From a virus (taxonomy: Duplodnaviria > Heunggongvirae > Uroviricota > Caudoviricetes), in IMG/VR virus record IMGVR_UViG_3300046820_001896: a stretch of DNA of 64,000 bases. One strand, written 5' to 3'. The notes beneath the pieces were generated by a model, which was given only the letters and a program-made list of their open reading frames with translations, was not told where the DNA came from and made no database searches. The translations under genes and the position numbers were made by a program. Below, one piece after another: positions 29,012-60,027 of the stretch; positions within the stretch are counted from its first letter, which is position 1; each line of letters starts with the position of its first letter.

Positions 29012-29055
29012 ATAACCATCAGTAAAAAACCGGCGGGAACCCCTTAGCAGGATAT

Positions 29056-29103: not shown

Positions 29104-29112
29104 GGAGTGCGC

Positions 29113-29343: not shown

Positions 29344-29345
29344 TA

Positions 29346-29372
29346 AAAAAGGGACCTTTCGGTCCCTTTCTA
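29346..29372. terminator. bidirectional rho-independent terminator between convergent genes
   Basis: aaagggacc-tttc-ggtcccttt. An A/T run follows it on the minus strand. Confidence 0.8.
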
Positions 29373-29433
29373 ATATCCAGGAATATTTTTCCCGTCTGTC
29401 TTTGGTAAGTTATCTAAAAACTTCCTAATCTTC

Positions 29434-35205: not shown

Positions 35206-35922
35206 ATGTCAGTGTATTTCCAAGGTTTTCCTACAATTCAATATGACGTCGATGATGATAGACACTTCATCGAAGTCACTGATATTTTTAGAACTGTTAG
35301 ACCAAAGCAATCATTAAAAGATGATCTGTTATTGTATAGCAAATATACAATTAAAGACGGAGAACGTCCAGATCATGTTTCGCAAAAGCTTTATGGTTCT
35401 ATTGATTATTATTGGACATTCTTTATGGTTAACGAGAAGTTAGTTAACTACCACACAGATTGGCCATTATCACGTCAAGAATTAGAAGATCATATTGCAT
35501 TGAAATATGATGGATATGCACTAACAGTTGATAGCGACATATCTACTTTATTCACTAAAAATGAAACAATCCAAGGTTTAGTATCTGGTGCAACTGCAAC
35601 AATAACTCAAAAAGATTGCAATACAGATACTATTCGAATACTTAATGTAGTTGGTCAATTTAGAGCTAATGAATTAATTAGAGGATTGACAAGCAACGAT
35701 ACAGTTCAAATTACGGGTCAAATTCCATTCTATGATGCAACTCATCATTATGAAGGACCGAATTCTACAATTACAGATAAAGCTCATGGAATTCCAATAA
35801 CAAATTCAGAATACGAATTCAACTTGAATGAAGAAAAAACTGAAATTAAAGTTATTCGACCACAATACATAATGCGTGTATCTGAGCAATTCTTCCAACA
35901 AATTAATCCGACAGCAGAATAA
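35206..35922 (+). CDS. gp53: T4 gp53-like baseplate wedge protein
   Basis: VTDIFR...YTIKDGERPDHVSQKLYGSIDYYWTFFMVNE...W parallels T4 gp53 MTDIFR...YYIKGSPRPEELANAIYGNPQLYWVLLMCND. ATG at 35206. Confidence 0.65.
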   Translation: MSVYFQGFPTIQYDVDDDRHFIEVTDIFRTVRPKQSLKDDLLLYSKYTIKDGERPDHVSQKLYGSIDYYWTFFMVNEKLVNYHTDWPLSRQELEDHIALKYDGYALTVDSDISTLFTKNETIQGLVSGATATITQKDCNTDTIRILNVVGQFRANELIRGLTSNDTVQITGQIPFYDATHHYEGPNSTITDKAHGIPITNSEYEFNLNEEKTEIKVIRPQYIMRVSEQFFQQINPTAE

Positions 35923-37181
35923 TGGCAGCATTAGGTAAATTAGACTATTCGATAGATGAAGCAACACTGACTTCGTCTACTGGTGAAGTATTCAAATTTA
36001 AAGATTTGATTAGTGGTATAGACATATATGAATCATTATTATCTCCATATATTAAAGTGGATTTAACAATTGGTGATGCCGCAAACTTATTTGAAACTGC
36101 TCCAATTATTGGACAAGAAAAAGTTGAATTGACTATCACTGAAGGTCCACATAAAATTACTAGAACATTTTATGTTGCTGGTATGTCAAACTTTATCAAA
36201 GGCAATAATCAAGCCACAATGTATGTGTTGAAATTGATTACGCCTGAACAAATGATGAATAGTTTGTTATTGGTTTCGCAATCATTTAGCGGTACTATCG
36301 ATCAATCTATCGAACAAATTGTAAAAGATTATTTAAAAAGTAAAATTGCCAATAAAGAACAATCTGCTGGTAATTACAGCGTTGTCATTCCAAATTGGAA
36401 TCCATTTCAAGCTATCGATTGGTTAGCTCGTAGAGCAATGACTGCAAAGAAAATGCCATTTGCTTTTTATGAAACATGGAAAGATGGTTTTCAGTTTGAA
36501 TCATATGAATCTATGTTCAAAAAGAAAGTGTACAATAAATTTGTTCATAAAGGTGGTACAACTGCAGAGAGTGATGCTGAAAACCAAGCTGCATCATATA
36601 ACGTTGCATTTGAATATGATTTAGCAGACTATGCTAATACGCATAAAAATACATTACGTGGAACGTTTGGTTCTGGTATGTGGGTAATTGATATTGCAAC
36701 TAAGACATATAAGTTTGTTCAATATAATTATGAAAAAGATTTTGATAAAAAAGATCATTTAGATAAAAAAGCTTTCGTTAACCCAGATTTTAAAGTAAAT
36801 GGTAAAAAAATATCTGAATACGATTCTATTCATCATGTAGTTAATAAAAATACAAAAGCATTTGGTGAAAAAGCTACTAATAATTATAACAATGAAGCAG
36901 AATACACAAAACTTGAAGGCGATCCATTCATTTATCAACTAACATTAAACAAAATGAACTTAGCTGTTCGTGGAAGATGTGATTTAAGCCCAGGTAAGAT
37001 TATTGATTTTGCTGTAGATAGAGCTAAACCTTCTGTATATGGTAATACTAAAGATGAGAACGAATATATTTCTGGCAAGTATCTTGTATTAAATACTCAC
37101 CACAAATTAGCATCTGGTAAATTTGTAACTATTTTTGATGCTGTTCGTGATTCTCTTGGTAAGAAAGTGAAAAAAGCATAA
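35922..37181 (+). CDS. baseplate hub protein (gp27-like, tentative)
   Basis: 419 aa (T4 gp27 is about 390), immediately upstream of and start/stop-coupled to the gp5 homologue. Confidence 0.45.
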   Translation: MAALGKLDYSIDEATLTSSTGEVFKFKDLISGIDIYESLLSPYIKVDLTIGDAANLFETAPIIGQEKVELTITEGPHKITRTFYVAGMSNFIKGNNQATMYVLKLITPEQMMNSLLLVSQSFSGTIDQSIEQIVKDYLKSKIANKEQSAGNYSVVIPNWNPFQAIDWLARRAMTAKKMPFAFYETWKDGFQFESYESMFKKKVYNKFVHKGGTTAESDAENQAASYNVAFEYDLADYANTHKNTLRGTFGSGMWVIDIATKTYKFVQYNYEKDFDKKDHLDKKAFVNPDFKVNGKKISEYDSIHHVVNKNTKAFGEKATNNYNNEAEYTKLEGDPFIYQLTLNKMNLAVRGRCDLSPGKIIDFAVDRAKPSVYGNTKDENEYISGKYLVLNTHHKLASGKFVTIFDAVRDSLGKKVKKA

Positions 37182-38422
37182 TGAAAAACTATATGAATTG
37201 GTGGACTGGTGTTGTAGAAGATCGCGCAGATCCACAAGAATTGGGTCGTGTGCGTGTTCGTATTTTTGGACATCATACCGATGATATTGATAAAATTAAA
37301 TTAGGTGATTTGCCATGGGCTCATGTGATGATGCCTACTACATCTGCATCTATTTCAGGTTTAGGTTGGTCACCGACAGGTTTAGTTGAAGGTTCATGGG
37401 TTGTTGGTTTCTTCGCTGACGGAGAAAATTGCCAAGATCCTATTGTGTTAGGTTCTATTCATGGATATCCAACTCAACCAGGTGAAGAGAAAAAAGCTTT
37501 TAAGGATTACACAGGTGCATATCCTCGTTGGTTAAATGACACCGATGTATCATATACTGCGCGTGGAAAATGGAAAGAACACCAATCGTATTTTGCAAGA
37601 TATGGTGAAATGGTTAAAGGCATTGAGCAATCAACAAAGCCCACATTAAAAACTGTTGATGCTGATGCAACTGATGAAGCACGTCAAACTTGGGATGAAC
37701 CAGAACCAAGACGTGGAGTTCCAGGAGCATATCCGTTTATTCATACTTACGAATCTGAATCTGGAATTGTCAGAGAAATAGATGATACTAATGCTGCTTC
37801 GCGTATTACTGAATATCATCCAGCTGGCACATTTTATGAAATTTTACCAGATGGCGATAAAGTAACTAAAGTTTCAGGTGATAATTATGAAATTATTATT
37901 GCATCTGATAATATTTTAGTTCGTGGCACTAGAACAACTACTATTGAAGGTGATTGTCGTCATCTTGTAAAAGGTGATTACATCGTCGAAGTAATGGGCG
38001 ATTATAATTTAAAAGTGCATGGTAATAGAAATACTAAAGTTACTTTAAATGATAATATGGAAGTAGTAGGTAATTATAACTTAAACGTTGCTGAAGATTT
38101 TTTAACACGTGTTGGTAAAAACCAAACATTATTAATTGACGTTGATAAAACTGAAAGTATTGGTGGAAAATCTACATTAACTGTAACTGGTACAGTTGAT
38201 TTGGTGCTTTTAGATACGTATAGTATGTTCTCTAATGGAGCACAACAAATATCAACAAATTCTACACAACAATTTTTATCAAAAGATGGATTAAATATTG
38301 GATCTGAAGCTGCAACAGTTGTTAAGTGTAATTCAAATATGACTTATGAAGTTTCTGGAACATTCAATATTAATGCTGGTCCAACATTCCAAGTTTTAGC
38401 AGATAAGATAGAGTTGAACTAA
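37181..38422 (+). CDS. gp5: T4 gp5-like central spike protein lacking the lysozyme domain
   Basis: N-terminal NWWTGVVEDRADPQELGRVRVRIFGHH (T4 NWFVGVVEDRMDPLKLGRVRVRVVGLH). C-terminal YPFIHTYESESGIVREIDDT...YHPAGTFYEI plus beta-helix repeats (T4 YPYVHTMETESGHIQEFDDT). No lysozyme segment between them. Confidence 0.88.
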   Translation: MKNYMNWWTGVVEDRADPQELGRVRVRIFGHHTDDIDKIKLGDLPWAHVMMPTTSASISGLGWSPTGLVEGSWVVGFFADGENCQDPIVLGSIHGYPTQPGEEKKAFKDYTGAYPRWLNDTDVSYTARGKWKEHQSYFARYGEMVKGIEQSTKPTLKTVDADATDEARQTWDEPEPRRGVPGAYPFIHTYESESGIVREIDDTNAASRITEYHPAGTFYEILPDGDKVTKVSGDNYEIIIASDNILVRGTRTTTIEGDCRHLVKGDYIVEVMGDYNLKVHGNRNTKVTLNDNMEVVGNYNLNVAEDFLTRVGKNQTLLIDVDKTESIGGKSTLTVTGTVDLVLLDTYSMFSNGAQQISTNSTQQFLSKDGLNIGSEAATVVKCNSNMTYEVSGTFNINAGPTFQVLADKIELN

Positions 38423-38423
38423 T

Positions 38424-39713
38424 ATGACAAATAAAGTTTGTGGTGTAAATGCCGCTTTAGATGAAGCAAAAGCAGGAATTAATTCTTTAAAAGATAAAAT
38501 TTCTGGTGGATTAGACTCGATTGGAGATTTAGGTGGTTTAGCAACTACTATTAAAAATAAACTTGCTGAGGTAAATGTACCTCAACTTCCAACAATAAAT
38601 CTTCAAGCAGAATTAGCTAATTTACCTAAATTAACTCCTGAAGAATATGCAGCCAAAGTAGCTGAATTAAAAAAAGCTTTTGGAGATGCAGTTCCAAATT
38701 TAGATAATATTATTTCTAAAATTCCTAAACCAGCAGGCGTGGATGGAGTTGGCCAAAAAGATATTTTTGCAGATTTAAAAGCTTTAGCTGGTGATGTTGG
38801 TGCTGCTGTTAGAAAGGCACAAGAAGAACTCGCAAACTTAAGCATTGATTCTGTTGTTGCTGATGTATGTAAAGAAGTACCAAACGTAGAAGTAGTTACT
38901 ACTACTGAAACTGTTAAAATTGCTGATCCAAAAACTGGTAAAGAAACTAAAGTTGAAGTTCCTGTAACATCTCCACCAGTTGAAAAAGCAAAACCACCTA
39001 CAACACCAAAAGAAAATCCTAAAAAAGAAATACCACCTTCAGAACCTCCTGCAAAAGGTTTTACTTTTAATTTTACAAGAGAAAAATTAATTGCTGCAGG
39101 TGGAAAAGAAGCAGGACCATGGTATGATGCTATGGTAGAAATGTTGCCAAAATATAACATCACAACTCCTGAAAGAGTTGCCGCATTTATTGGTAACGTA
39201 AGAGCTGAATCTACATGGACTAAGTTGTCTGAAAATTTAAATTATGGAGCTAAGTACTTATTTGAAAGATTAAATCCTGGACGTATTCGTTTTCCAACTT
39301 ATGAGGATGCTGTTAAAGTAGAAAGAAAACCAGAACCTATTGCTAACATAATTTATATGGTTGGTCGTAAATTGCTAGATCCACAACCAGGTGATGGTTG
39401 GAAATTTAGAGGGCGTGGATTGATTGGTTTAACCTTTAAAGATGAATATTTAAGAGCTTCTAAAGCAATCTATAATGATGATAGATTGGTACAAAATCCA
39501 GATTTAGTTGCAACTGATAGAACTACAGCAATCTTAACTGCATGTTATTTCTTTAAACGCAATAATATGAATCCATGGGCAGATAAACAAGATTGGGGAA
39601 ATTGTAGAAGTATCGTTAATGCTGGTTCTCCTGGTAAAGATCCTAAAATTATTCACGGATATGAGTCTGGAGTAAAATTTCAACAAGATGCATATAACGT
39701 TCTGAAAGGTTAA
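38424..39713 (+). CDS. tail-associated lysin: coiled/Pro-Lys linker plus C-terminal GH19-type muramidase domain
   Basis: C-terminal ERVAAFIGNVRAESTWTKLSENLNYGAKYL...FRGRGLIGLTFKDEY is paralogous to the endolysin at 8104-8733. The linker is VTSPPVEKAKPPTTPKENPKKEIPPSEPP. Confidence 0.75.
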   Translation: MTNKVCGVNAALDEAKAGINSLKDKISGGLDSIGDLGGLATTIKNKLAEVNVPQLPTINLQAELANLPKLTPEEYAAKVAELKKAFGDAVPNLDNIISKIPKPAGVDGVGQKDIFADLKALAGDVGAAVRKAQEELANLSIDSVVADVCKEVPNVEVVTTTETVKIADPKTGKETKVEVPVTSPPVEKAKPPTTPKENPKKEIPPSEPPAKGFTFNFTREKLIAAGGKEAGPWYDAMVEMLPKYNITTPERVAAFIGNVRAESTWTKLSENLNYGAKYLFERLNPGRIRFPTYEDAVKVERKPEPIANIIYMVGRKLLDPQPGDGWKFRGRGLIGLTFKDEYLRASKAIYNDDRLVQNPDLVATDRTTAILTACYFFKRNNMNPWADKQDWGNCRSIVNAGSPGKDPKIIHGYESGVKFQQDAYNVLKG

Positions 39714-39724: not shown

Positions 39725-40162
39725 ATGCGTACACAACATCCATCAGATTTATTAACACCAAAAGCTTCTATCGTAGCAAAAAGTTATGTTCACACTGATT
39801 TAGATTTGACTTTTACACCAAATCCAGTCACTGGCGATATTAATGCTATTAAAGATATTGAAGCTATTAAGCGTTCTGTTAAAAACTTAATCTTAACTAA
39901 CTTCCAAGAGCGTCCATTTCAACCTGAAATAGGTTCTGGAGTGCGTGGATTGCTATTTGAATTAGCAGATCCAATTACGATGCATGATATTAAGCAAGCA
40001 ATTGCTCGTACTATTAAAAACTTTGAACCAAGAGTTAACTTGATTGATGTATCGGTAAACGATGATTTTGATAATAATTCATATAATGTCGACATAACAT
40101 TTCAAATTATTGCTAATGAATTAATTGGCAATGCAACAATCATACTAGAGAGATTACGATAA
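39725..40162 (+). CDS. gp25: gp25-like baseplate wedge protein (GPW/gp25 family)
   Basis: 145 aa. IKRSVKNLILTNFQERPFQPEIGSGVRGLLFE is the conserved gp25/W core. Confidence 0.75.
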   Translation: MRTQHPSDLLTPKASIVAKSYVHTDLDLTFTPNPVTGDINAIKDIEAIKRSVKNLILTNFQERPFQPEIGSGVRGLLFELADPITMHDIKQAIARTIKNFEPRVNLIDVSVNDDFDNNSYNVDITFQIIANELIGNATIILERLR

Positions 40163-42104: not shown

Positions 42105-43028
42105 ATGGCTGACGTCACTAAAAGAATAAGTCCATCGAATCCAAAGTTTTATTCTTTGGATTCAATTTTACCTGAGCACTTAAAAGAAAATACAAAATTT
42201 ACACAATTTTTACAAGAGTATTTTAATTGGATGCAACTTGATGAGACTTCACCGGTCTCAGTCATCAATACACTTGATAAATTTCGTGATGCAGATTTAA
42301 TTAATGAAAATTTTCTAAAGTATTTAGAGCGTGAACTTGCAATTTCTATTCCTGGTAATTTACCAAATACTGACAAGCGAAAACTTTATAAACAAGTAAA
42401 CGACATCTATCGAGCTAAAGGTTCAATTCCTTCGTTCGAAGCATTGTTCAATTTGTTATACGGCGATGATATTGAACTATATTATCCTCGTATTGACCTG
42501 ATGAAGTTATCTGATGGTAATTGGAGCGAAGATGAAAATCGTTATTTGAATAAAGGTAGCTTTTTATCTGATTATAACTACATTCAAGACAGTTATTACT
42601 ATCAAGATTATTCATATGTTATTAAAACAAGAAAACCATATGAACAATGGCAAGCTGCAGTTAGAAAAATGCTACATCCTTCTGGATTTGCATTATTTGG
42701 TAGAGTAACTATTGTAAGTCAAGCCACTGTTAAAAGATTGAAGTCACCAAAACTTCAACCTGGAAGTAGATTTACAAGTTATGACAGAGTAATTCCAATC
42801 AGATTAGCTGTTGTAAAAGCAACTACTACTGTTGTTGAGATAGATTCATTCTTAGAAACGACATACTTTTCAGTTGGTGCAAAATTTGGGCCATCTTTCA
42901 GTTTATTAGACAAAATTAAGTTTATCATCGATCAACCAATCAATGCTTATATGCAATTTACATTGAAGGATGCTAGAGATGGTAATGGATTCAACGTATT
43001 ACCAGGTTCTGTAATAACGGTATCCTGA
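42105..43028 (+). CDS. baseplate wedge-associated protein (307 aa)
   Basis: Position between the gp6 and gp8 homologues. Confidence 0.5.
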   Translation: MADVTKRISPSNPKFYSLDSILPEHLKENTKFTQFLQEYFNWMQLDETSPVSVINTLDKFRDADLINENFLKYLERELAISIPGNLPNTDKRKLYKQVNDIYRAKGSIPSFEALFNLLYGDDIELYYPRIDLMKLSDGNWSEDENRYLNKGSFLSDYNYIQDSYYYQDYSYVIKTRKPYEQWQAAVRKMLHPSGFALFGRVTIVSQATVKRLKSPKLQPGSRFTSYDRVIPIRLAVVKATTTVVEIDSFLETTYFSVGAKFGPSFSLLDKIKFIIDQPINAYMQFTLKDARDGNGFNVLPGSVITVS

Positions 43029-43031: not shown

Positions 43032-43039
43032 TATAAATA
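43032..43039 (+). promoter_or_regulatory. T4-type late promoter motif TATAAATA
   Basis: Exact TATAAATA 27 nt upstream of the ATG at 43066. Confidence 0.55.
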
Positions 43040-51003: not shown

Positions 51004-52095
51004 ATGTCTGTCATAAACGTAAGTTTAGAAGATACATTCGAACAATGGAGAATTAAGACTAATCAGCTTGGTTCTACCATTGGTGATGCAGCTTCTCTTC
51101 AAACAACTTCAACAAATTTAGTTGCAGCAATCAATGAAGTTCGCAGTAATGCGGTCGTTGATGGTATCGTCACGACTTATGGCAATATATTTCAAATTAA
51201 TATTGATGAAGGCGATTCAGCTGAATTAATATTAGATTTGGACGGTAACTTAACATTAGCTGGTGATTTAATTGCTGACGTTACAGGTAACCTAAATGGT
51301 AATGCTAATACAGCAACGAAACTTCGTAATGGTCGTATTATCTCTATTACTGGTGATGCGACATGGGATGTAGTATTTGATGGATCTGCTAATGCAACCG
51401 GTCAATTGCAAATCAATCCAACAGGTGTTGTACCAGGAACATTTACTAAAGTTACTGTTGATGGAGATGGTAGAATATATGAAGGTTTTGATTTAGAAGA
51501 TACTGATGTTATTGCTGCTCTTGGATATACACCAGTAAGTGAAGATGCAGGTTATGATAATCCAAGTTGGCTGACTTCTATTAATGGTAATAAAATTAAT
51601 AGTGCAAGCAATATTACAATTGCTAACTTAACTGTTGGAAGTAGAGTATATCTTGGAAACGGTTCTGCAACTGCTCCAAGTATCGGGTTTTCTTCTGATG
51701 CTGCTCAAGATACTGGAATTTATTGGGGTGGAGATGGTTACACTTTCTTCACCAACAATGGTGTAAAAAGCGGTGAGATTCAACCTGGCGGAAACTTAGT
51801 GATGGTTGGTAACGTTGGTGGTTATTCAGATATTCGTCTTAAAAGGGATATTGAAACTATCAAAGGCGCTCTTGATATTGTTAATCAGTTAAGAGGCATC
51901 TATTATACGTCTATAGATACTAATGAACGTAGCGTTGGTGTTGTAGCTCAAGAAGTACAAAACAAAATTCCAGAATTAATTAGAGTTGGTGAAAATGGAA
52001 TGCTTTCAGTTTCATATGGAAACATGGGAGGTCTTCTTTTACAAGCTATCAATGAATTGACAGAGAGAGTAAAAGCTATCGAAGCTAAATTATGA
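51004..52095 (+). CDS. tail fibre/spike protein with C-terminal S74-type intramolecular chaperone domain
   Basis: C-terminal YSDIRLKRDIETIKGALDIVNQLRGIYYT...VGVVAQEVQNKIPELI...LSVSYGNMGGLLLQAINEL is the auto-cleaving chaperone module of endosialidase-type fibres. Confidence 0.8.
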   Translation: MSVINVSLEDTFEQWRIKTNQLGSTIGDAASLQTTSTNLVAAINEVRSNAVVDGIVTTYGNIFQINIDEGDSAELILDLDGNLTLAGDLIADVTGNLNGNANTATKLRNGRIISITGDATWDVVFDGSANATGQLQINPTGVVPGTFTKVTVDGDGRIYEGFDLEDTDVIAALGYTPVSEDAGYDNPSWLTSINGNKINSASNITIANLTVGSRVYLGNGSATAPSIGFSSDAAQDTGIYWGGDGYTFFTNNGVKSGEIQPGGNLVMVGNVGGYSDIRLKRDIETIKGALDIVNQLRGIYYTSIDTNERSVGVVAQEVQNKIPELIRVGENGMLSVSYGNMGGLLLQAINELTERVKAIEAKL

Positions 52096-52502
52096 CTTTA
52101 CAAACAACAGGATTAATCACTCTTAGAGATATAGCAAATGAGGCTGGGCAACCAACCTCATTTTCGCCTTCCCTATCGTGGGTTAAATCAATCGTAAAAC
52201 CCGCAAATAGACTTCCAACTAATGAGATTGACGATGTCTATGGATTTGCATATTTCCAAAAAAATTCTGAAGGCAACTGTGCTAACGGAAATTGTACAGC
52301 AAATTGTAATTGTGGAAATATTCAATGTACTAACTGCGCTATTACTGGAACAGTAAATTGTACAAACTGCGATACACAAGCTTGGTTACAACCAAATTGT
52401 AATTGTGCTTGCACATATAATTGTAACCAAACACAAATTAGCTATAACTGTGCGTGTGCTTGTGCATGCGCTTGTGCTTGTGCTGATGGTGGCGGTGGAT
52501 AA
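52092..52502 (+). CDS. Cys/Asn-rich protein (136 aa), putative substrate of the adjacent radical SAM enzyme
   Basis: ATGA-coupled to the fibre gene. Residues 1-62 have no Cys; residues 63-130 have 18 Cys, 11 of them as Asn-Cys. Ends NCACACACACACADGGGG. Confidence 0.75.
   Translation: MTLQTTGLITLRDIANEAGQPTSFSPSLSWVKSIVKPANRLPTNEIDDVYGFAYFQKNSEGNCANGNCTANCNCGNIQCTNCAITGTVNCTNCDTQAWLQPNCNCACTYNCNQTQISYNCACACACACACADGGGG
52449..52484 (+). repeat. (TGY-GCN)6 hexanucleotide coding repeat = (Cys-Ala)6
   Basis: tgt gcg tgt gct tgt gca tgc gct tgt gct tgt gct, read directly. Confidence 0.95.
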
Positions 52503-52523
52503 ATAGTTATTTGAGGCGATATT

Positions 52524-53957
52524 ATGATATTTGAAATTTTAGCAGAACGCAGTGAAAAAGATAGAAAAACATTTTTTTACGATAATATAAAAAATGTCTT
52601 ATCTTCAGAGGATGGTTTCATATTTAGTGTGGAAAATAAAAAAACACACAATCATATTGCTATACCATTTTCTAAAAAATCCCCATTGAAAAAATCAAAG
52701 AATATTACAAAACTAAAGATCCAAATGGGTCTTTCGTGTAACTATTCTTGCGACTATTGTTCTCAAAAGTTTGTTGGTCGTCCACCAGAAACCAATAAAA
52801 AAGACATTGATGACTTTATGAAAAAGTTAGAGGTGTTAGAATTCACAGAAGAACAAGGTTTATCAGTAGAATTTTGGGGAGGAGAGCCATTCGTTTATTG
52901 GAAAACTATGAAGCCTCTCGCAGAAGCTATTATGGAAAAGTTTTCTCATTGGAAAAATAGACCTAAGTTTTCAGTGATCACAAACGGTTCTATCTTAACA
53001 AGAGACATTTGTGCTTGGTTATATTACATGGGGTTTTATGTTTCAATTAGTCATGACGGTCCAGGGCAAAGTGTCAGAGGTCCTGATCCATTCGAAGACG
53101 AAGAAGCAAAAAAGATCGTATTAGAATTTTACAAAATAATGAAGCCACAAGGTAGAATTAGTTTTAATTCTATGCTTAATTCTAAAAATAAAAATCGGAA
53201 AGCAATTCACGAATGGTTTATCAATTTTACTGGAGATCCCGAAGTTCCTTTAGGAGAAGGTGCTTTAGTTGATGCATATGATTTAGATGGTATGAATAAT
53301 TCACTATCTACTAAAGAAGAACATTTTGAATTTAGAAGAAATTCTTTTAATGATATTAGATCGAATAATGGTTATATTGGATTTGGAACTATATTACAAA
53401 AAATAGATGGTTTTACTAATTCAGTGATGAATCAACTACCAGCTTCTGGATTAGGACAAAAGTGTGGAATGGATGATCAACATGTTTTAGCGATTGATAT
53501 GAAAGGCAATGTATTAACTTGTCAAAATGTATCTGCTGTTGAAACTGCAATGAATGGTGAATCTCATTTAGGCGGAAACTTAGATGACTACGATAATGTA
53601 GAGTTAAAATCTTCTACTCATTGGGCAAATAGAGAAGAGTGTTCAAAGTGCCCAGTTTTGCATCTATGCAAAGGTTCTTGTATGTTTTTAGATGGTCAGT
53701 TTTGGAAAACAACATGCGATAATGCTTATTCTGATAACATTTCACTTTTTGCTTTAGCATTCGAAAAGATGACATCAGGGTATATTCCATTGTACATAAA
53801 TAGTAATGAATTATCCCCAGAAAGAAAAGATATTTGGGGAACAATATTAAGCCATAAAGAAGAACCTACTAAAAAAATTATTCCTATTATTGCTGTAAGC
53901 GAAAAAACAGTATTAAATGATGTAGAAGTCTATACACAAGCAAAGGTAACACAATGA
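52524..53957 (+). CDS. radical SAM enzyme with C-terminal SPASM domain (peptide-maturase / anSME-like)
   Basis: C72-x3-C76-x2-C79 (SCNYSCDYC), GGEPF, VITNGS. SPASM signature C314-x13-G-x4-C333 and C373-x2-C376-x5-C382-x3-C386, then C398. RBS gagg. Confidence 0.88.
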   Translation: MIFEILAERSEKDRKTFFYDNIKNVLSSEDGFIFSVENKKTHNHIAIPFSKKSPLKKSKNITKLKIQMGLSCNYSCDYCSQKFVGRPPETNKKDIDDFMKKLEVLEFTEEQGLSVEFWGGEPFVYWKTMKPLAEAIMEKFSHWKNRPKFSVITNGSILTRDICAWLYYMGFYVSISHDGPGQSVRGPDPFEDEEAKKIVLEFYKIMKPQGRISFNSMLNSKNKNRKAIHEWFINFTGDPEVPLGEGALVDAYDLDGMNNSLSTKEEHFEFRRNSFNDIRSNNGYIGFGTILQKIDGFTNSVMNQLPASGLGQKCGMDDQHVLAIDMKGNVLTCQNVSAVETAMNGESHLGGNLDDYDNVELKSSTHWANREECSKCPVLHLCKGSCMFLDGQFWKTTCDNAYSDNISLFALAFEKMTSGYIPLYINSNELSPERKDIWGTILSHKEEPTKKIIPIIAVSEKTVLNDVEVYTQAKVTQ

Positions 53958-54274
53958 TATTAATTGATGTAGAAAGTCAAAATTTGCCTGAATTAATTCG
54001 TTTATATAAGACTATTCCTTATGTTGTCCAAATAAGATGCAATAAAATATTAAGACAGCATTATAAAGATTTTGTAGGAGAAGATGGTTTGTATGTTGCA
54101 TGTTTAGTGCAGGTGAAGTCAGGCGAAGACAAATATTTAAAGTTTGAAGATATCTTATCTAAAGAGGTGTGGGATGATCCCATGCAATATCAATATTGTC
54201 TGCAGAATATGAAATTAAAAATAGATGATTACATAGAAAATGATGTTCTTCCAAAAACACCATATAGCGAGTAA
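53954..54274 (+). CDS. small protein, paralogue A of a tandem pair (106 aa)
   Basis: ATGA overlap with the rSAM gene. Shares NL..L......V.Q.R....L.Q...D.VG.DG....CL and K..IDDYI..D..P with the next ORF. Confidence 0.65.
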   Translation: MILIDVESQNLPELIRLYKTIPYVVQIRCNKILRQHYKDFVGEDGLYVACLVQVKSGEDKYLKFEDILSKEVWDDPMQYQYCLQNMKLKIDDYIENDVLPKTPYSE

Positions 54275-54276
54275 TT

Positions 54277-54573
54277 ATGGAAACACCTAATTTATTAACT
54301 TTAGTAAATCGTCTTAGACAAACTGAACATGTTACGCAAGTTAGATATCACCAAGTTTTAAAACAACGTTTTAGAGATTTAGTTGGAGTAGATGGTATTT
54401 CAATTGTATGTTTACTTACTAATAAAGCTAATCCTGAAAATTTTGTGAAAATTGTAACTATTTTAGAAGCTTCAGTAATTGAGAATTTAGAACGACATGA
54501 TGCTATCATAGAAGATATTAAAACAAGAATCGATGATTATATCATCAGAGATATAAGGCCACCAAAATTCTAA
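54277..54573 (+). CDS. small protein, paralogue B of the tandem pair (98 aa)
   Basis: See paralogue A. 2-nt gap. Confidence 0.65.
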   Translation: METPNLLTLVNRLRQTEHVTQVRYHQVLKQRFRDLVGVDGISIVCLLTNKANPENFVKIVTILEASVIENLERHDAIIEDIKTRIDDYIIRDIRPPKF

Positions 54574-55307
54574 TGTTAACAGATCAAGAAATTAATGACT
54601 ATTACGATAGTCTTGTGCCAGTTATGCCAAGACCAGAAGATCGTGTCGTAGATATGTCATTTAAAAATACTAATACCAACATTCTAATATCTGCCGGTAG
54701 ATTATTAGCTGTTGCCAATTATTCTGCAAGCGTAAAAGCATTAGCAGAATTTAATAAATCTAATATTTTTACATTTCAATTAGTAGGAATGGAAGAACGT
54801 CCAAATTTATATTTTCAAAAAAATAAATGTTGGAGAATTCGTGTTACTGAAGATGGTAAAGCTTGGCAAGATTCGCCTAATATTGAATCAATCGAACAAT
54901 TATATGATTTTATTTTAATCTCTCAAAAAGCTGCAGTCTTAGATGTTATTCATCGTCGTTTAGATATGAATAGACGTAGAGAAATTAAAGCTGCACAAGG
55001 TCAAAATCACATCTATTTTGCAAAATATTTAGAAGCAAAAGAAATCCTTGAAAAAGGAATTACTGAAGATCCTATTTGTAAATATCCATTTGTTACTGGA
55101 TATGCTGATTTAGTCGGAATGGATATTGTAGAAGCATCTAAGCGCATTAAATTTAAGTATGAAACTCGTGCATCATTTTTAGCAGAAAATGAAACGCTTA
55201 GATTAAAATATACTGCATTCGTTAAACAGCAAACTACTCTGGAAGATTTAGGTGCTGTGTTAGAACAATTTAAAGCTGAAAGCACAAAGTACGGCGATTC
55301 ACTATGA
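54573..55307 (+). CDS. hypothetical protein of the cassette (244 aa)
   Basis: TAATG overlap upstream and ATGA overlap downstream. Confidence 0.65.
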   Translation: MLTDQEINDYYDSLVPVMPRPEDRVVDMSFKNTNTNILISAGRLLAVANYSASVKALAEFNKSNIFTFQLVGMEERPNLYFQKNKCWRIRVTEDGKAWQDSPNIESIEQLYDFILISQKAAVLDVIHRRLDMNRRREIKAAQGQNHIYFAKYLEAKEILEKGITEDPICKYPFVTGYADLVGMDIVEASKRIKFKYETRASFLAENETLRLKYTAFVKQQTTLEDLGAVLEQFKAESTKYGDSL

Positions 55308-56425
55308 GCACTATATTTTATAATAGTTATGATATCTTCGTAAATGAAGCATATCATGAAAAACGCAATCAAATTCCAGGTGGTCATGCATTTGGTGGTT
55401 ATTTTCAATTATTTTCTAGCAATATTACATCTATTGACAGAACGAATACATTTAGTATACCACTAAAGACTACTGTATTACCTCATCTTCAAATGCCAAA
55501 AATGAGAACATTCACTAAATCATTTAGTGATATTTGTGATGATAGAGCCATTGAATTGATGAATAAAGCTAAGACAGATAATCGTAAGATTGCGGTTATG
55601 TACAGCGGAGGAATTGATTCTACTGTTATTCTGTGTGCTTTATTAAAGAACTGCACAGAACAAGATTTAAAAAACCATGTAATTGTGCTTTTGACAGATC
55701 ATAGTATTTTAGAAAATCCTAATTTTTATAATGACTATATTATCAAAAAGTTTGAATGTGTTTCAAGTTATAGATTTCCATATTTCCTAGGGAATGATGA
55801 TTACATCGTAATTTCTGGTGAAAATGCAGATCAATTGTTTGGTTCACAAGTAGTTGCTAAATTTATTGCATATCGTTCGTTTGATTATTTGTTTACTCCA
55901 TTAGATCAAGCTGCTGGGGATATCATTGATTGGATGACTATGAAATTGCAAGATGAATATAAAAAATATGCGCCTTATTATTGGCAAATGTTTAGACATC
56001 TTTGCAATGCTGCTCCGATTCCTATTGATAACGTATATAAATTTTTCTGGTGGATTAACTTTACAAACAAATGGCAATCAGTATATGTTCGTATTTTACC
56101 ATACGCTAAAAATAGAAGTAATATTAAATTAGAAGATAATTACACTACGTTTTTCTGCCCGCAAGATTTCCAATTGTGGTCATTAAATAATCCAGATAAT
56201 CTAGTAAAAGAATCTTTAGATAATGTAAAATATATCGCAAAAGATTATATTTTAGATTTTAATGGAGATCAATCTTACTATAAAAAACCTAAGATTGGTA
56301 GCTTAACTAATATTGTGAAGCAAAAAGAAATTGTTATGTTATTAAATGATGATATGACATTTACAAATGACTACCCAGATAGTCAACACTGGAATGAAAC
56401 AAACACTTTTTCGGAGATGATGTAA
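55304..56425 (+). CDS. PP-loop ATP pyrophosphatase, asparagine synthetase B synthetase-domain-like (lasso-cyclase-like)
   Basis: IAVMYSGGIDST (SGGxDS, residues 101-106) and ISGENADQLFG (AsnB GEGADELFGG). No N-terminal glutaminase Cys. Confidence 0.7.
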   Translation: MSTIFYNSYDIFVNEAYHEKRNQIPGGHAFGGYFQLFSSNITSIDRTNTFSIPLKTTVLPHLQMPKMRTFTKSFSDICDDRAIELMNKAKTDNRKIAVMYSGGIDSTVILCALLKNCTEQDLKNHVIVLLTDHSILENPNFYNDYIIKKFECVSSYRFPYFLGNDDYIVISGENADQLFGSQVVAKFIAYRSFDYLFTPLDQAAGDIIDWMTMKLQDEYKKYAPYYWQMFRHLCNAAPIPIDNVYKFFWWINFTNKWQSVYVRILPYAKNRSNIKLEDNYTTFFCPQDFQLWSLNNPDNLVKESLDNVKYIAKDYILDFNGDQSYYKKPKIGSLTNIVKQKEIVMLLNDDMTFTNDYPDSQHWNETNTFSEMM

Positions 56426-57069
56426 TGATTATTGAAAACAAGATTGATGTGCTAGATACGATGTATCCTTGTTATGCTGAAAAAGTAGTAAATGCATTAT
56501 ATCACTCTAAAGCATATTGTACATTATATGGATATATTATGTCAGGAGAAGTTACATTTCCTAATGGAAGTGTAGCTGTAGAAGGGCAATATTTTTGTTA
56601 TTGGACTGGTGAAGGTGATTCTATTAGAACTACTGGTGAAGTTTACATATTCACACGCTTTGGATTCAAAGGACAAAACACCATTGGTGGTCCAATTGAA
56701 GAAAGCGGTCGTTTAGTTTATATAGATTCTTGTTCTGATAGTTTATTGGTGTATCCTCCTAGAATGGGAGATCCATCTTTAAACTTATTACAATTTCCTT
56801 CTGCTGTCAAACAATCGTATCATATCCATCCGAGCATTAGACTTGGAGTAGTTGTAAAAGGTAAAGGATATGCTTGTATCAAAAAAGCATATGAAGAAGA
56901 ACAAATTGAATTAAAGCCAGGTGTTATGTTCTGTATAGAAGAAAGAGAACAACATCGTTTTATGACAACATACGATGAAATGACAGTTATAGCATTCCAT
57001 CCAGACGGTGATTGGGGTCCAACTGATCATAATCACACAATGTTAAACAGAACATATATTACGAAATAA
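56425..57069 (+). CDS. cupin-fold protein (tentative)
   Basis: SYHIHPSIRLGVVVKGKG and KPGVMFCIEEREQHRF resemble the two cupin motifs. TAATG overlap. Confidence 0.45.
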   Translation: MIIENKIDVLDTMYPCYAEKVVNALYHSKAYCTLYGYIMSGEVTFPNGSVAVEGQYFCYWTGEGDSIRTTGEVYIFTRFGFKGQNTIGGPIEESGRLVYIDSCSDSLLVYPPRMGDPSLNLLQFPSAVKQSYHIHPSIRLGVVVKGKGYACIKKAYEEEQIELKPGVMFCIEEREQHRFMTTYDEMTVIAFHPDGDWGPTDHNHTMLNRTYITK

Positions 57070-57081
57070 TCGGAGAAAAAT

Positions 57082-57441
57082 ATGGCAGCGCCAAATATCG
57101 TTAACGTTTCAAACATTACTGGAAAAACAGCTGTAATGTTTGTTACTACATCTGCGCAAGATCTTATCACAAATCCTGCATCTAGCAATAAAGTTTTAAA
57201 ACTAAATAGTTTGACTATTGCTAACGTTAACGGAACTGCAGCTGCATCTGTGACTGTTAGTATTTTTAGAAGTTCATCAGAGTATAAACTTGCACATACT
57301 GTTTTCGTTCCAGCAAATGCTACTTTAGTTGTAGTATCAAAGGATAGTGGAATTTATTTAGAAGAAGGCGATAGTTTACGCATTGTCGGATCAGCAAATA
57401 ATTATTTGCATGCAGTATGTGGATATGAGAGCATTAGTTAA
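57082..57441 (+). CDS. small beta-rich structural protein (119 aa), distant paralogue of 62650-62991
   Basis: RBS ggag. Shared VSNIT.K start and L.IANV...V.VS......Y...V.V.PN.S pattern. Confidence 0.6.
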   Translation: MAAPNIVNVSNITGKTAVMFVTTSAQDLITNPASSNKVLKLNSLTIANVNGTAAASVTVSIFRSSSEYKLAHTVFVPANATLVVVSKDSGIYLEEGDSLRIVGSANNYLHAVCGYESIS

Positions 57442-58073
57442 TGTCTTTACGCAACAAAGGTAAAGCTGGTTATATTGGATACGACCGTGTTAGTAGTCCT
57501 GATGTTGGAAGCGGTATATGGAACTTAAACCAACATCACACAGCTGTATCTGATTATAGTTGGGCTGGTCAGTCTGTATACACAAACTATGATGGAAATT
57601 TAAATGGTTTTACTGTTAGCGGAGCTACTACTAGCAGTAATGCCATATATGTTCCAGGAAATAGTTATGCATATAGAGATATGATATCTCCGTTCACTAG
57701 TTTATTATTTAAAACAATGACTTTTGAAGTTTATATTAGCGGCGGAGTATGTGGTGTATTAATTGGAAGTTCTACTGCCGGTAGAGGACCTTTATTAAAA
57801 CTAGATGCACGTGGCGGCAGTAATTATAGCGGTATGATGTTCCAAACTTCTTGGACTGTTAGAGGTGATCCTCCAGTTACCGGTGTGCAATTACCAGCGA
57901 ATTCATGGGTACCTGTGCGACTAGAAGTTAATAATGCGATGCGTATTGACTGGTCTGCAAATAATAGGTATGATCGTCAACCTATTCTTTTATCTGGTCC
58001 ATTTATTACATTCCTTGGATTAGGCGGCGGCGGTTATTTTAGAAATATTAGAGTTTATAATGGTGTATCATAA
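57441..58073 (+). CDS. structural protein with GIWNLNQ N-terminal motif (210 aa)
   Basis: TAATG overlap. GSGIWNLNQHH shared with GIWHLKQVG of the next ORF. Confidence 0.6.
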   Translation: MSLRNKGKAGYIGYDRVSSPDVGSGIWNLNQHHTAVSDYSWAGQSVYTNYDGNLNGFTVSGATTSSNAIYVPGNSYAYRDMISPFTSLLFKTMTFEVYISGGVCGVLIGSSTAGRGPLLKLDARGGSNYSGMMFQTSWTVRGDPPVTGVQLPANSWVPVRLEVNNAMRIDWSANNRYDRQPILLSGPFITFLGLGGGGYFRNIRVYNGVS

Positions 58074-59266
58074 TGTATAACGGCGGAATATTTGGTAAAA
58101 AAAATTATCCAAACGTTTTTAATGCTAATGGTATATGGCATTTAAAACAAGTTGGGGATTTTATACATCGTGGTGAATGGTATTTTGCAAGAAGCGCAAC
58201 TGTTAATGCTACTTCATTTTTAGAAGGTGATACTATCACTGTTACAATTAATGCTCCAAGCTTACCAGACGGTACAAAACTATATTGGACTATTAATACT
58301 GTTTCAGGAACTATTCGTACAGATGATTTCGATAATCGTATTTTGAATGGTCCGCTTTCTATTATTAATGGAAAAGATACGACTAGTAGAAAATTAGAAA
58401 CAAGTAAACAAGGAGATGGTAATAGATCATTTACTATTGCTATTAGAACTGAATCTGTAGAAGGTCCAATTATTGCAACTACTCCTGTTTTAACACTAGA
58501 CGACGTAGCTCGTGGCGGTAATGCCATTTTTGATAGAGGTGGATATCGATATCATAAATTTACTTCTTCTGGTAATTTCCTTTGTAATCGTTCTCTCGGT
58601 TTAACTGTATTTGCAGTTGGCGGAGGCGGTGGCGGTGGCGGTAATGGTGGAGGTGGCGGCGGTGGCGGAGGTATCGTATATACAAATATCTCTGTTGGAG
58701 CTGGAACTTATTTTATTGGAATAGGTGGAGGAGGAAGCGCAGCTCCTAATGGTAGTGTACACGGAGGAAACGGTGGAGCTACCACATTTCAAGGATTTAT
58801 AACTGCTAATGGCGGTGGCGGTGGTGGCTCTCGAGACACAGATCGTAACGGTTATTATGGTGGTTCAGGTGGTGGTGGATCTAGTAATGGTGGAGGAGGT
58901 GGCGGTACTCCTGGCCAAGGTAATAATGGTGGTAATGGTATTATTGCTGGTTCTGGTGAAGTCCAATCTACTGGCGGTGGTGGCGGTGGATATGGCGGTG
59001 GTGGACAAAACGGTGCTGCTAAAGATGCTGGTAATGGTGGACCAGGAGGTGCATTTGATCCAACTGCCGACGGTACTGCAGAATATTATTCTGGCGGCGG
59101 AGGTGGAGGTAGAACTGTTTTCGGTACTACTGGTTCAAATGGTCAAGGGCAAGGTGTCAATAGAGGTGGAGGAGGTAAAGGCGGTTCTGGAGGATCGACT
59201 TCATTTGCTGCTCAAGCTGGAGACACAGGCTATTGTGTAATTCGTTATTTGATTCCGAGTAATTAA
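58073..59266 (+). CDS. glycine-rich domain protein (397 aa)
   Basis: N-terminal GIWHLKQ motif. C-terminal half with G7NG9 and repeated GGGGxG/NGG tracts interrupted by short beta-like segments (IVYTNISVGAGTYFIGIGGGG). Confidence 0.7.
   Translation: MYNGGIFGKKNYPNVFNANGIWHLKQVGDFIHRGEWYFARSATVNATSFLEGDTITVTINAPSLPDGTKLYWTINTVSGTIRTDDFDNRILNGPLSIINGKDTTSRKLETSKQGDGNRSFTIAIRTESVEGPIIATTPVLTLDDVARGGNAIFDRGGYRYHKFTSSGNFLCNRSLGLTVFAVGGGGGGGGNGGGGGGGGGIVYTNISVGAGTYFIGIGGGGSAAPNGSVHGGNGGATTFQGFITANGGGGGGSRDTDRNGYYGGSGGGGSSNGGGGGGTPGQGNNGGNGIIAGSGEVQSTGGGGGGYGGGGQNGAAKDAGNGGPGGAFDPTADGTAEYYSGGGGGGRTVFGTTGSNGQGQGVNRGGGGKGGSGGSTSFAAQAGDTGYCVIRYLIPSN
58619..58672 (+). repeat. (GGN)18 low-complexity coding repeat
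   Basis: ggc gga ggc ggt ggc ggt ggc ggt aat ggt gga ggt ggc ggc ggt ggc gga ggt. Confidence 0.9.
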
Positions 59267-59267
59267 T

Positions 59268-59636
59268 ATGGCAACATACGCTCAAATAGATGAAAATGAT
59301 TTTGTAGTAAATGTTATAGTTGCTGAAGAAGAATTTATTGCTTCTTTACCTAATACTGCTGAATTTATACAAACATCCAGAAATACGTATGGAGGAGTAC
59401 ATGTATTAGGCAAAACTCCGCTTAGAAAAAATTATGCAGCTATTGGTTATTTTTACGATAGAAATAGAGATGCATTTATTCCGCCAAAGCTTTTTGATTC
59501 ATTCGTATTTAATGAAGATACATGTCAATGGGATCCTCCTATTCCATGTCCAAATAAAGATGGATACATGTATAAATGGAATGAAAATACAATCTCATGG
59601 ATAGAGCAATTAATTCCTCCAGATGATTCGGCGTAA
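59268..59636 (+). CDS. conserved phage hypothetical protein (122 aa)
   Basis: MATYAQIDENDFVVNVIVAEEEFI is a common phage N-terminus (from memory). Confidence 0.6.
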   Translation: MATYAQIDENDFVVNVIVAEEEFIASLPNTAEFIQTSRNTYGGVHVLGKTPLRKNYAAIGYFYDRNRDAFIPPKLFDSFVFNEDTCQWDPPIPCPNKDGYMYKWNENTISWIEQLIPPDDSA

Positions 59637-59647: not shown

Positions 59648-59655
59648 TATAAATA
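59648..59655 (+). promoter_or_regulatory. T4-type late promoter motif TATAAATA
   Basis: Exact TATAAATA 34 nt upstream of the ATG at 59689. Confidence 0.55.
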
Positions 59656-59688: not shown

Positions 59689-60027
59689 ATGTCTCAGTTA
59701 GTTAACCTAGTTATCGACCAAGGATCAGACTTCGTAGCCACGTTGGATATCGAAGATTCCATTGGTACTGCATTGGATTTAGCTCCATACACAGTGCGTG
59801 GTCAAATTAGAAAGACATACACTTCGCTTACAGCAACAGTAATTGGTTGCACAAAAACAGATAACAGAGGCGAAGTAAAATTAACGCTGACAAATGAACA
59901 AACGTCAGCTATGCGTGACGGTCGTTATGTGTATGATATTGAGATTGTCCATTCAATTTTAGGCACAGTAATTCGTGTTGTTGAAGGACAAGTAACAGTA
60001 ACTCCTAGAGCAACTCGACCAGCGTAA
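59689..60027 (+). CDS. Ig-like/beta-sandwich structural protein (112 aa)
   Basis: ORF after a late promoter. Alternating beta-strand pattern. Confidence 0.55.
   Translation: MSQLVNLVIDQGSDFVATLDIEDSIGTALDLAPYTVRGQIRKTYTSLTATVIGCTKTDNRGEVKLTLTNEQTSAMRDGRYVYDIEIVHSILGTVIRVVEGQVTVTPRATRPA

Follow-up and report, generated by a model that had tools for sequence, protein, structure and literature searches.

In the QhpD/QhpC system, which matures the gamma subunit of quinohemoprotein amine dehydrogenase, a radical S-adenosylmethionine (radical SAM) enzyme with a SPASM domain installs several intramolecular Cys thioethers in a small structural subunit, not in a secreted peptide. S74 domains characteristically mark trimeric fibres and spikes (endosialidase, T5 pb1 type); no S74 fibre is known to have a radical SAM partner of its own or a tip rich in Cys and Asn. 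The T-even protein Gp38 is small, its gene directly follows a fibre gene, and its receptor-side half is repeat-rich, with Gly-rich motifs. Among the AsnB-family amide synthetases (lasso cyclases, beta-lactam synthetase, TsnB9), the lasso cyclases show that the AsnB fold can act on peptide carboxylates. The ranthipeptide and sactipeptide maturases (PapB, CteB/SCIFF, CcpM, NxxcB) combine a radical SAM core with a seven-Cys SPASM domain, are encoded beside a small Cys-rich substrate gene and provide precedent for thioethers from Cys to Asn, Asp, Glu or Thr. Here, we analyse a 64,000-nucleotide (nt) stretch of viral DNA (IMG/VR record IMGVR_UViG_3300046820_001896; the whole stretch is hereafter the window), in which seven genes at 52092-57069 form a cassette inside a late tail-fibre operon. 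The cassette encodes a Cys/Asn-rich protein, a radical SAM/SPASM enzyme, two small paralogues (s106a and s106b), a protein termed p244, an AsnB-like protein and a cupin-fold protein (Table 1). The source is an uncultivated marine T4-like myovirus with gp48, gp5, gp6, a gp32-type single-stranded-DNA-binding protein and a giant virion protein. In gp6 it shares 42% identity with Methylophilales phage Melnitz and 40% with Pelagibacter phage HTVC008M.

An earlier note on this DNA had taken the AT-richness of the stretch 52503-57081 as a sign that the enzyme genes were a horizontally acquired, mobile module. We arrive at a different reading, which on balance we consider probable: the AT-rich dip results from protein composition, and the cassette is an old, portable maturation system, similar to those of peptides that are ribosomally synthesised and then modified post-translationally (RiPPs), for a fibre-tip protein, in which the radical SAM enzyme would modify the Cys/Asn-rich protein as its substrate. 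The cassette would connect the maturation of phage tail fibres with RiPP-type radical SAM chemistry, two fields between which no link has been described.

Judged by its sequences, the cassette resembles a radical SAM/SPASM RiPP system or QhpD/QhpC but falls outside every curated equivalog family and departs from RiPP clusters in several respects. Compared with the ranthipeptide and sactipeptide systems, the phage enzyme scores below every equivalog cutoff and no RiPP recognition element (RRE), peptidase or exporter was found; the putative substrate is 125–330 amino acids (aa) long, with an N-terminal domain that is folded and less well conserved, as a ‘leader’, than the core; it is fused in some phages to fibre-type self-cleaving domains and is essentially phage-restricted. 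QhpD is among the best NCBIfam hits of the enzyme, but dehydrogenase partner genes are lacking, the substrate sequence is another one and the context is viral. The fibre encoded upstream of the cassette is itself an S74 fibre, whereas the Cys/Asn-rich protein in the window has no S74 domain. Like Gp38, the Cys/Asn-rich protein is small, is encoded immediately after a fibre gene and has a repeat-rich half, putatively on the receptor side, but its core is rich in Cys and Asn and not in Gly, and modification enzymes accompany it. The AsnB-like protein shares the PP-loop SGGxDS of the AsnB family and, in its predicted structure, resembles the synthetase-domain fold, but it has no N-terminal glutaminase-like domain, and its Asn_synthase match is below cutoff.

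Base composition and codon usage

The hand counts of G+C in the earlier note (27/120 and 13/60 within the stretch, 22/60 and 26/60 outside it) are exact, and 52503-57081 is indeed markedly AT-rich, with a GC content of 0.311, whereas the window as a whole has 0.373 and the structural module outside this stretch 0.363. Among all 4579-nt spans of the window, sampled every 50 nt (mean 0.372, standard deviation 0.026), it is the lowest in GC, approximately 2.3 standard deviations below the mean. In a profile of 500-nt windows, GC drops at approximately 52.25–52.5 kb and recovers at approximately 56.5–57 kb, edges that agree with the coordinates given in the earlier note. The left boundary at 52503 needs correction, as the unit starts at 52092 with the Cys/Asn-rich open reading frame (ORF), for which GC is normal (0.384). 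The dip is hardly extreme: the structural module holds other single genes that are equally AT-rich (35922-37181, 0.309; 39725-40162, 0.322; 42105-43028, 0.323), and Gly/Ala/Thr-rich fibre genes such as 58073-59266 (29% Gly, GC up to 0.50) exaggerate the contrast with the flanks.

The GC deficit is located in the first and second codon positions (GC1 and GC2). The cassette has a third-position GC (GC3) of 0.193, the remainder of the module at 34.3–63.8 kb 0.188 and the immediate flanks 0.191, and GC at four-fold sites is not lower in the cassette than in the flanks; if anything, it is higher. When the module's own synonymous codon usage is applied to the amino-acid sequences of the cassette, the predicted GC is 0.326, compared with the observed 0.311 and with 0.363 for the rest of the module, such that approximately 70% of the dip is accounted for by amino-acid content. 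Given the equal GC3, the deficit in GC1 and GC2 and this prediction, the dip is mostly a matter of amino-acid content. The cassette is depleted in Thr, Gly, Ala, Val and Ser and enriched in Lys, Glu, Met, Cys, Tyr and His; Lys/Glu/Ile/Tyr/Met-rich enzymes sitting between Gly/Ala/Thr-rich fibre proteins would produce such a local dip. It is also low in GC relative to its neighbours in every carrier genome, as expected if protein composition is the cause. What is left over, −0.014, is no larger than the residuals seen for other genes of the module, which range from −0.033 to +0.039. The synonymous-codon distance between the cassette and the rest of the module (0.095) is above a homogeneous null (0.056 ± 0.0075), but it is matched or exceeded by same-size blocks elsewhere (35922-39713, 0.101; pieces of the 2118-aa gene, 0.12–0.14), and an early-gene positive control is well above it (0.145).

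Hence, AT-richness here is a by-product of protein composition and not a sign of foreign DNA. Sliding-window, GC3 and codon-usage analysis around 52.5 and 57.1 kb gave no GC3 break and a codon distance within the range of other blocks, the result that the earlier note had itself named as contradicting horizontal acquisition; the GC-based transfer claim, an ordinary one, is largely refuted. Where a phage genome is AT-rich, amino-acid composition can by itself produce a local fall in GC between fibre genes, and GC3 and codon-level tests are needed before horizontal transfer is invoked.

Synteny and age of the cassette

Megablast of 50–60 kb against 50,697 phage records gave no DNA-level match, and synteny was therefore assessed with protein anchors and IMG/VR contigs. 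In three related contigs (L016 and L017, 93–97% protein identity; L018, 62–81%) the whole cassette lies between homologues of 51004-52095 and 57082-57441, and its proteins are conserved to the same degree as the flank proteins. Four-fold-site divergence from L017 is 0.350 for the cassette and 0.339 for the flanks. In L018, GC3 of the cassette (0.336) is higher than that of the flanks (0.268), with GC1 and GC2 still lower in the cassette. The same site and the equal divergence in all three indicate that the cassette is old at this site and not a recent arrival, and its protein identities point to vertical inheritance here since before the divergence of lineages that are now 62–81% identical. 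No boundary repeats or insertion scars were found at the cassette edges, and no integrase, transposase or homing endonuclease ORF was found in the window (ORF list, Pfam and PHROG scans).

These results bear directly on the possibility that the cassette came only recently from a donor richer in AT, entering between two fibre genes, and that its composition has not yet ameliorated. In favour of such an event are the low GC (0.311 versus 0.363–0.373), the unexplained residual of −0.014, with negative residuals in five of six genes, and the absence of the cassette from Melnitz and from the distant T4-like contig L022. However, GC3 and four-fold GC are not below the flanks, the codon distance is unexceptional, the site is shared with relatives down to 62–81% amino-acid identity at equal silent-site divergence, GC3 in L018 is reversed, the low GC relative to neighbours recurs in every carrier, and neither flanking repeats nor an integrase or homing endonuclease was found. 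We therefore regard recent acquisition as very improbable indeed.

The cassette is nonetheless accessory: it is absent from Melnitz and all other cultured relatives in the phage collection, and a homologue of its radical SAM enzyme occurs in only nine phage records, none of which (0/9) is a relative of this phage. In L022 an S74 fibre is directly followed by a homologue of 59689-60027, which implies that 52092-59636 is missing there as a whole. The same gene set (Cys-rich protein, radical SAM enzyme, s106, p244, AsnB-like protein and cupin; 32–65% identity) lies beside PhoH and a lysozyme-like gene, a non-fibre context, in four contigs (L066, L095, L057 and L090), and at least three cassette architectures occur among the loci recovered. 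The term ‘mobile accessory module’ used in the earlier note is thus borne out by presence/absence and by the differing genomic contexts, but not by composition; the synteny comparison likewise places the cassette between the two flanks in L016, L017 and L018 and finds it absent in Melnitz and L022. Taken over longer times, the gene arrangements indicate a portable accessory module that occupies different places in different phages.

A Cys/Asn-rich protein paired with a radical SAM enzyme

The Cys/Asn-rich protein consists of an N-terminal domain of ~55 aa and a core, GNCANGNCTANCNCGNIQCTNC..VNCTNCD..WLQPNCNCACTYNC..YNCACACACACACADGGGG. It matches no Pfam, NCBIfam or PHROG family. We recovered ~105 representatives of its family at 50% clustering and 137 IMG/VR loci; the alignment has 20 invariant columns, nearly all Gly, Asn or Cys (GNC.NGNC...C.NC...NC.NCD.Q...NC.CACTYNC...NC.C.C). 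The N-terminal ~55 residues are far more variable than the core, the reverse of the typical conservation of RiPP leader and core. In the AlphaFold2 (AF2) model, the per-residue confidence (pLDDT) is 75–89 for the N-terminus and below 50 for the core. A degenerate-motif scan found the signature motif in 5 of ~185,000 species genomes, so nearly absent from cellular genomes, and the family appears essentially phage-restricted. Occurrences in ‘bacterial’ assemblies, such as Polynucleobacter and Paraburkholderia (see below), are rare. The former, a 28.7-kb Polynucleobacter sp. JS-Safj-400b-B2 contig at 277x coverage (L110), also carries an AsnB-like gene (P0360) and looks like a co-assembled phage.

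A Cys-rich homologue adjoins the radical SAM gene in seven of the seven loci first recovered through the latter. Conversely, among 80 IMG/VR loci recovered via the Cys-rich family itself, a radical SAM gene is adjacent and co-oriented in 78, mostly with a gap of 2–100 nt, upstream in 45 and downstream in 33; the two exceptions are a contig end and a short radical SAM hit. This is the arrangement of a RiPP cluster, with the precursor gene adjacent to the maturase gene. The pairing recurs in L024, L027 and L025/L026 (a 202-kb contig, a 79-kb phage contig and a Paraburkholderia sp. BCC1886 region), and in Paraburkholderia sp. BCC1886 an S74-terminated fibre gene overlaps the Cys-rich gene by 4 nt, as in the window. 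The Paraburkholderia locus is fibre-rich, with Mtd_N and Gp34_trimer genes. No account of the pairing turned up in full-text literature searches; in an unrelated context, a cyanophage paper from 2025 counts an ‘rSAM maturase’ among genes for antibiotic synthesis.

The enzyme itself has the radical SAM motif CX3CX2C (C72/C76/C79) and scores 36.6 bits against PF04055 (cutoff 29.5), which places it among radical SAM proteins. A seven-Cys SPASM signature (C314, C333, C373-x2-C376-x5-C382-x3-C386 and C398) and 35.3 bits against TIGR04085 (cutoff 27) make it a SPASM protein. It matches phrog_1802 at 1e-63 and, in the PDB, 8vpo, 5wgg and 4k37. The best NCBIfam equivalogs are PapB, geopeptide, QhpD and CcpM, and membership in five equivalog families was rejected, given that all bit scores are far below cutoff: PapB (NF047865, 74 versus 340), QhpD (TIGR03906, 68 versus 453), CcpM (TIGR04068, 63 versus 500), SCIFF (TIGR03974, 44 versus 425) and anSME (TIGR03942, 45 versus 349). 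Only ~55 aa precede the radical SAM core.

From adjacency and alignment, we infer that the 136-aa protein is the substrate of the radical SAM enzyme. A competing account is that it forms a disulfide-bonded or metal- or Fe-S-binding beta-solenoid-like module, comparable to the Cys-rich beta-helices of insect antifreeze proteins or to the Fe-S tail-tip protein gpL of phage lambda, and that the radical SAM enzyme acts on something else or draws on the protein for a cluster or for sulfur. The regular CxC and NC spacing and the expandable repeats would suit such a module, the AF2 failure could reflect a need for metal or oligomerisation, and the radical SAM homologue of Ralstonia phage RSP15 has no such partner. 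Yet the adjacency in 78 of 80 loci is seen with either gene first and across three or more genomic contexts, and near-obligate adjacency of this kind argues for a direct functional couple. The nearest radical SAM families, moreover, all modify Cys-rich peptides or proteins, and the tail sequence of the protein co-varies with the tailoring enzymes (see below), which argues that the protein is the object of modification. The metal or disulfide module seems distinctly unlikely to us.

Fibre-like domain architecture

Members of the Cys-rich family occur as stand-alone proteins, as fusions to an S74 domain, a Hint domain or a hydrophobic extension of ~170 aa, and once with a Gly-rich, fibre-like domain inserted between the N-terminal module and the core. 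An S74 domain is present in about a fifth of the family (7/30 aligned members; the window copy has none) and joins as ‘..C.CFW|SDDRLK’, with a conserved SD(D/I)RLK junction right after the core; the Hint fusion joins as ‘..NCNS|CFPAGT’. The variant with the hydrophobic extension (‘SKIICTKLFDLGLM...’) is found at L008/L009 11489-12441 and at about 27 other loci, with the radical SAM gene upstream. In the cultured Achromobacter phage JWF (L002) the radical SAM homologue is gp030 (44% identical), and the fibre-repeat protein gp028, encoded two genes upstream (L002 5799-7250), has an (NC)n run and terminates in QNCNCDCNCNCS plus a Hint domain at C308. JWF gp028 is annotated as a ‘Hom_end-associated Hint family protein’.

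S74 chaperones cleave in front of their conserved Ser; for Hint domains, the first Cys is the site of action. Two unrelated self-cleaving domains right after the (X-Cys)n tail imply that the mature product ends in this tail. The position of the 52092 ORF is probably not arbitrary either, because elsewhere the protein is fused to the S74 domain that here ends the upstream fibre. The N-terminal ~55 aa give a weak Foldseek match to Gp38-domain proteins (probability 0.92, E value 0.1); with no Pfam or PHROG hit besides, assignment to the T-even Gp38 adhesins was rejected. The most likely product is a virion component that is small and very stable, of a fibre-tip or adhesin-like type, and not a secreted peptide.

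The opposite view would be that the cassette makes a diffusible RiPP (a toxin, a signal or a host-manipulating peptide) from a 136-aa leader-plus-core precursor, with the fibre context incidental. A Cys-rich ORF with a radical SAM/SPASM enzyme and a halogenase, 2-oxoglutarate (2OG) oxygenases or an AsnB-like enzyme follows classic RiPP cluster logic, many loci lie in the PhoH and auxiliary-metabolic-gene region and not in the fibre region, and the core is disordered in AF2, as peptides are. What makes this account unlikely in our view is that no leader peptidase or exporter is found in any cassette type, as a RiPP cluster would have, and no RRE was found; that conservation is far higher in the core than in the N-terminal ‘leader’; that the protein is fused to S74 and Hint domains, typical of trimeric fibres and spikes, and to a Gly-rich fibre-like domain; and that its gene overlaps an S74 fibre gene in a late structural operon.

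Accessory proteins and their covariation with the tail of the putative substrate

The two s106 proteins are fused into one 214-aa protein in L018. In the halogenase-type and S74-type cassettes, the gene downstream of the radical SAM gene encodes a protein with a C-terminal half homologous to them (hhalign probability 96.6%, E value 7e-10), which suggests that the s106 domain is a third recurrent cassette component; it was not found in the AspH-type cassettes. Only three homologues are present in a set of 5.8 billion proteins. Small ORFs after the Cys-rich gene in L008/L009 were rejected as s106 homologues (hhalign probability 0.1%). An assignment of s106a and s106b as RREs found no support in profile searches against the PDB or in Pfam, and their apparent order of helices and strands, read by eye from the consensus, does not seem RRE-like. 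The p244 gene is duplicated in L004 and L018; its product has no match in Pfam, PHROGs, NCBIfam or the PDB, by sequence or profile, and is unrelated to s106 or ‘ds’.

The AsnB-like protein (373 aa, without a glutaminase domain) has weak matches to PF01171 and PF00733 (the latter 15 bits versus a cutoff of 21) and belongs to a family of 487 clusters, none of them annotated. Its AF2 model has a pLDDT of 92, and the best Foldseek matches are TsnB9, human ASNS, beta-lactam synthetase, carbapenam synthetase and Escherichia coli AsnB; the fold matches to AsnB, beta-lactam synthetase, CarA and TsnB9 have a probability of 1.0 but a TM-score of only 0.3–0.4. A carboxylate-adenylating, amide-forming enzyme is predicted. 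The cupin-fold protein, 60–70% identical in L018, L066 and L095, scores 26.9 bits against PF07883 (cutoff 27.2), carries HxH...E and PxG..H metal-site motifs, has weak matches to ectoine synthase and acireductone dioxygenase and is a possible oxygenase or isomerase.

At 46 distinct loci with enough flanking sequence, the C-terminus of the Cys-rich protein varies together with the enzymes encoded beside it, in counts that are phylogenetically non-independent and uncorrected for shared ancestry. Proteins ending in Gly (‘..CGG’, ‘..DGGGG’) are accompanied by an AsnB-like gene in 6/7 cases compared with 0/39 of the others, and those ending in Trp (‘..CACACW’) by a flavin Trp-halogenase gene in 7/7 compared with 1/39. 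The lone halogenase locus without a Trp ending is an S74 fusion of which the predicted mature end is also Trp. The ~170-aa extension goes with an Asp/Asn beta-hydroxylase-like (AspH-like) gene in 26/27 cases versus 0/19. Such covariation is expected if the neighbouring enzymes act on the Cys-rich protein; it gives ready-made predictions of substrate specificity and, for the Trp-ending forms, hints at a phage protein that is halogenated on its C-terminal Trp. CACACW-ending proteins, always with a gene for a flavin-dependent Trp-halogenase in the cassette, are found in L005, L059, L064, L079, L084, L087-L089, L092, L096 and L104.

Proposed function

In the mechanism that we propose, the radical SAM/SPASM enzyme would bind the Cys-rich core of the 136-aa protein and, by 5'-deoxyadenosyl radical chemistry with thiolates bound to an auxiliary cluster, most probably form several Cys-S-C thioether cross-links, plausibly with the invariant Asn residues as acceptors. 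We propose thioethers because the nearest curated relatives (PapB, QhpD, CcpM and the SCIFF maturase) all form them. NxxcB, which forms a Cys-Asn beta-thioether (PMC9389541), is the precedent for an Asn acceptor, and PapB forms Cys-Asp/Glu thioethers (PMC9413430). The AsnB-like enzyme would be expected to adenylate the carboxylate of the conserved Asp or of the C-terminal Gly in the ...ADGGGG tail, with an amide or a lactam as the outcome; for the cupin, oxidative tailoring is a candidate role, and p244 and the two s106 proteins may carry out or assist further tailoring. The product would be a compact, covalently stapled tip or adhesin-like virion protein.

Several points weigh against this reading of a fibre-tip maturation system. 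Thioether formation is one of several possible chemistries: SPASM enzymes also form C-C bonds, epimerise residues and generate formylglycine, all NCBIfam equivalog scores are far below cutoff, and 8vpo, the closest solved homologue by sequence, is cited in a paper on radical SAM-SPASM cyclopropylglycine synthases. No RRE was detected in the maturase or in the s106 profile (PDB, Pfam), the s106 family has no match to known folds, and AF2 fails to model the Cys-rich core. RSP15 encodes a radical SAM homologue (L001 8001-9341, 45% identity) among its tail-fibre genes with no Cys-rich partner ORF within 17 kb. The neighbours of the pair are, in many phages, PhoH and 2OG oxygenases and not fibre genes, a context that suits a non-structural role equally well, and the likeness to Gp38 finds no support in sequence, with no hit to PF05268 or the Gp38 PHROGs. 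To these we add that the covariation counts are uncorrected for shared ancestry, and the GC deficit of 0.014 beyond amino-acid composition. Finally, the substrate relationship, the chemistry and the virion location are read from context, whereas composition and codon usage, synteny, obligate adjacency, domain fusions, enzyme superfamilies and tail–enzyme covariation are observations.

A broader proposal, which we advance tentatively and regard as possible rather than probable, is that the family represents a widespread, phage-restricted class of receptor-side fibre tips, made of a radical SAM-cross-linked Cys/Asn module with lineage-specific decoration and released by S74 or Hint self-cleavage. 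Decoration might consist of a halogenated C-terminal Trp, a hydroxylated Asn or Asp, or an AsnB-type amide or lactam at the Asp-Gly tail. If true, this would be the first case of RiPP-type radical chemistry maturing a virion structural protein. A cross-linked fibre tip would offer a new route to hyper-stable or chemically unusual receptor-binding structures, and would explain the recurrent radical SAM, 2OG-oxygenase and halogenase ‘auxiliary metabolic genes’ in marine myoviruses.

Operon context and other features of the window

The upstream fibre gene 51004-52095 (PF13884, 43.9 bits, cutoff 22; tail-fibre PHROGs down to 8e-31) has a stop codon that overlaps the start of the 52092 gene by 4 nt. 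We propose, from its position, that the late-promoter-like motif at 43032 may be the start of the late operon that holds the cassette (Table 1). Genes between this motif and the one at 59648 overlap or are ≤21 nt apart, and no late-promoter motif on the + strand and no convincing terminator was found between the two; with such tight spacing and no internal late promoter or terminator, the cassette appears to be co-transcribed with the late structural genes. The motif TATAAATA is not enriched in the window overall (8 found versus 7.8 expected), and it is the placement alone that is suggestive. Nearly all + strand copies lie in intergenic gaps 25–45 nt upstream of a start codon, and positions include 34264, 43032, 59648 and 62351 (also 7316 and 12839). 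Scans for sigma-70 promoters and terminators in the window were not above shuffled expectation.

Table 1 Coordinates of the cassette genes and neighbouring features in the window
Feature	Coordinates	Strand	Evidence
Tail fibre, 363 aa, C-terminal Peptidase_S74 intramolecular chaperone (‘YSDIRLK...’)	51004..52095	+	PF13884, PHROGs
Cys/Asn-rich protein, 136 aa, 18 Cys, first cassette gene	52092..52502	+	adjacency, alignment
(TGYGCN)n tract, coding for the Cys-rich protein's CACACACACA tail	52449..52489	+	repeat search, translation
Radical SAM/SPASM enzyme, 477 aa	52524..53957	+	PF04055, TIGR04085, motifs
s106a, 106 aa, paralogue of s106b	53954..54274	+	paralogy, E value 6e-19
s106b, 98 aa, paralogue of s106a	54277..54573	+	paralogy
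p244, 244 aa, travels with the AsnB-like gene	54573..55307	+	synteny
AsnB-like PP-loop ATP-pyrophosphatase, 373 aa, ‘SGGIDS’ at residues 101-106	55304..56425	+	motif, AF2/Foldseek
Cupin-fold protein, 214 aa	56425..57069	+	near-cutoff PF07883, motifs
Downstream fibre-like unit: 119, 210, 397 (29% Gly) and 122 aa	57082..59636	+	
T4-type late-promoter-like TATAAATA, upstream of 43066	43032..43039	+	
Next + strand late-promoter-like TATAAATA, upstream of 59689	59648..59655	+	

The downstream fibre-like unit is missing along with the cassette in L022. Similar 110/~404/~125-aa units, in which a Gly-rich protein has partners of ~110 and ~125 aa, occur three times in Melnitz. The GC spike of 0.49–0.50 at 58500-59250 is caused by the 397-aa, 29% Gly protein with its long poly-Gly runs (phrog_2295).

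Codon usage is strongly heterogeneous within the genome: GC3 is 0.30–0.54 in genes at 14–28 kb and 0.11–0.27 in the late structural module, and the codon distance between 14000-31000 and 34300-63800 (0.145) is above anything seen at the cassette. The gene 26916-27839 (phrog_1250) has the top GC3 in the window (0.536); on composition, it would be more readily taken for foreign DNA than the cassette. A 647-aa ORF on the − strand (10349-12292), without a PHROG match, combines a GC2 of 0.50 with a GC3 of 0.17. The endolysin-like baseplate gene 38424-39713 has the lowest GC3 in the module (0.112; residual z = −5.2), and stand-alone homologues of the C-terminal ~200 aa of its product adjoin the PhoH-context cassettes in L066 and L095. 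Twelve tRNA genes lie at 53-2891 (Met, Thr x2, Pro, Gly x2, Leu, Arg, Ile(tat), Trp, Lys and His), of which the ‘tRNA-Ile (tat)’ at 1207-1301 is unusually long (95 nt).

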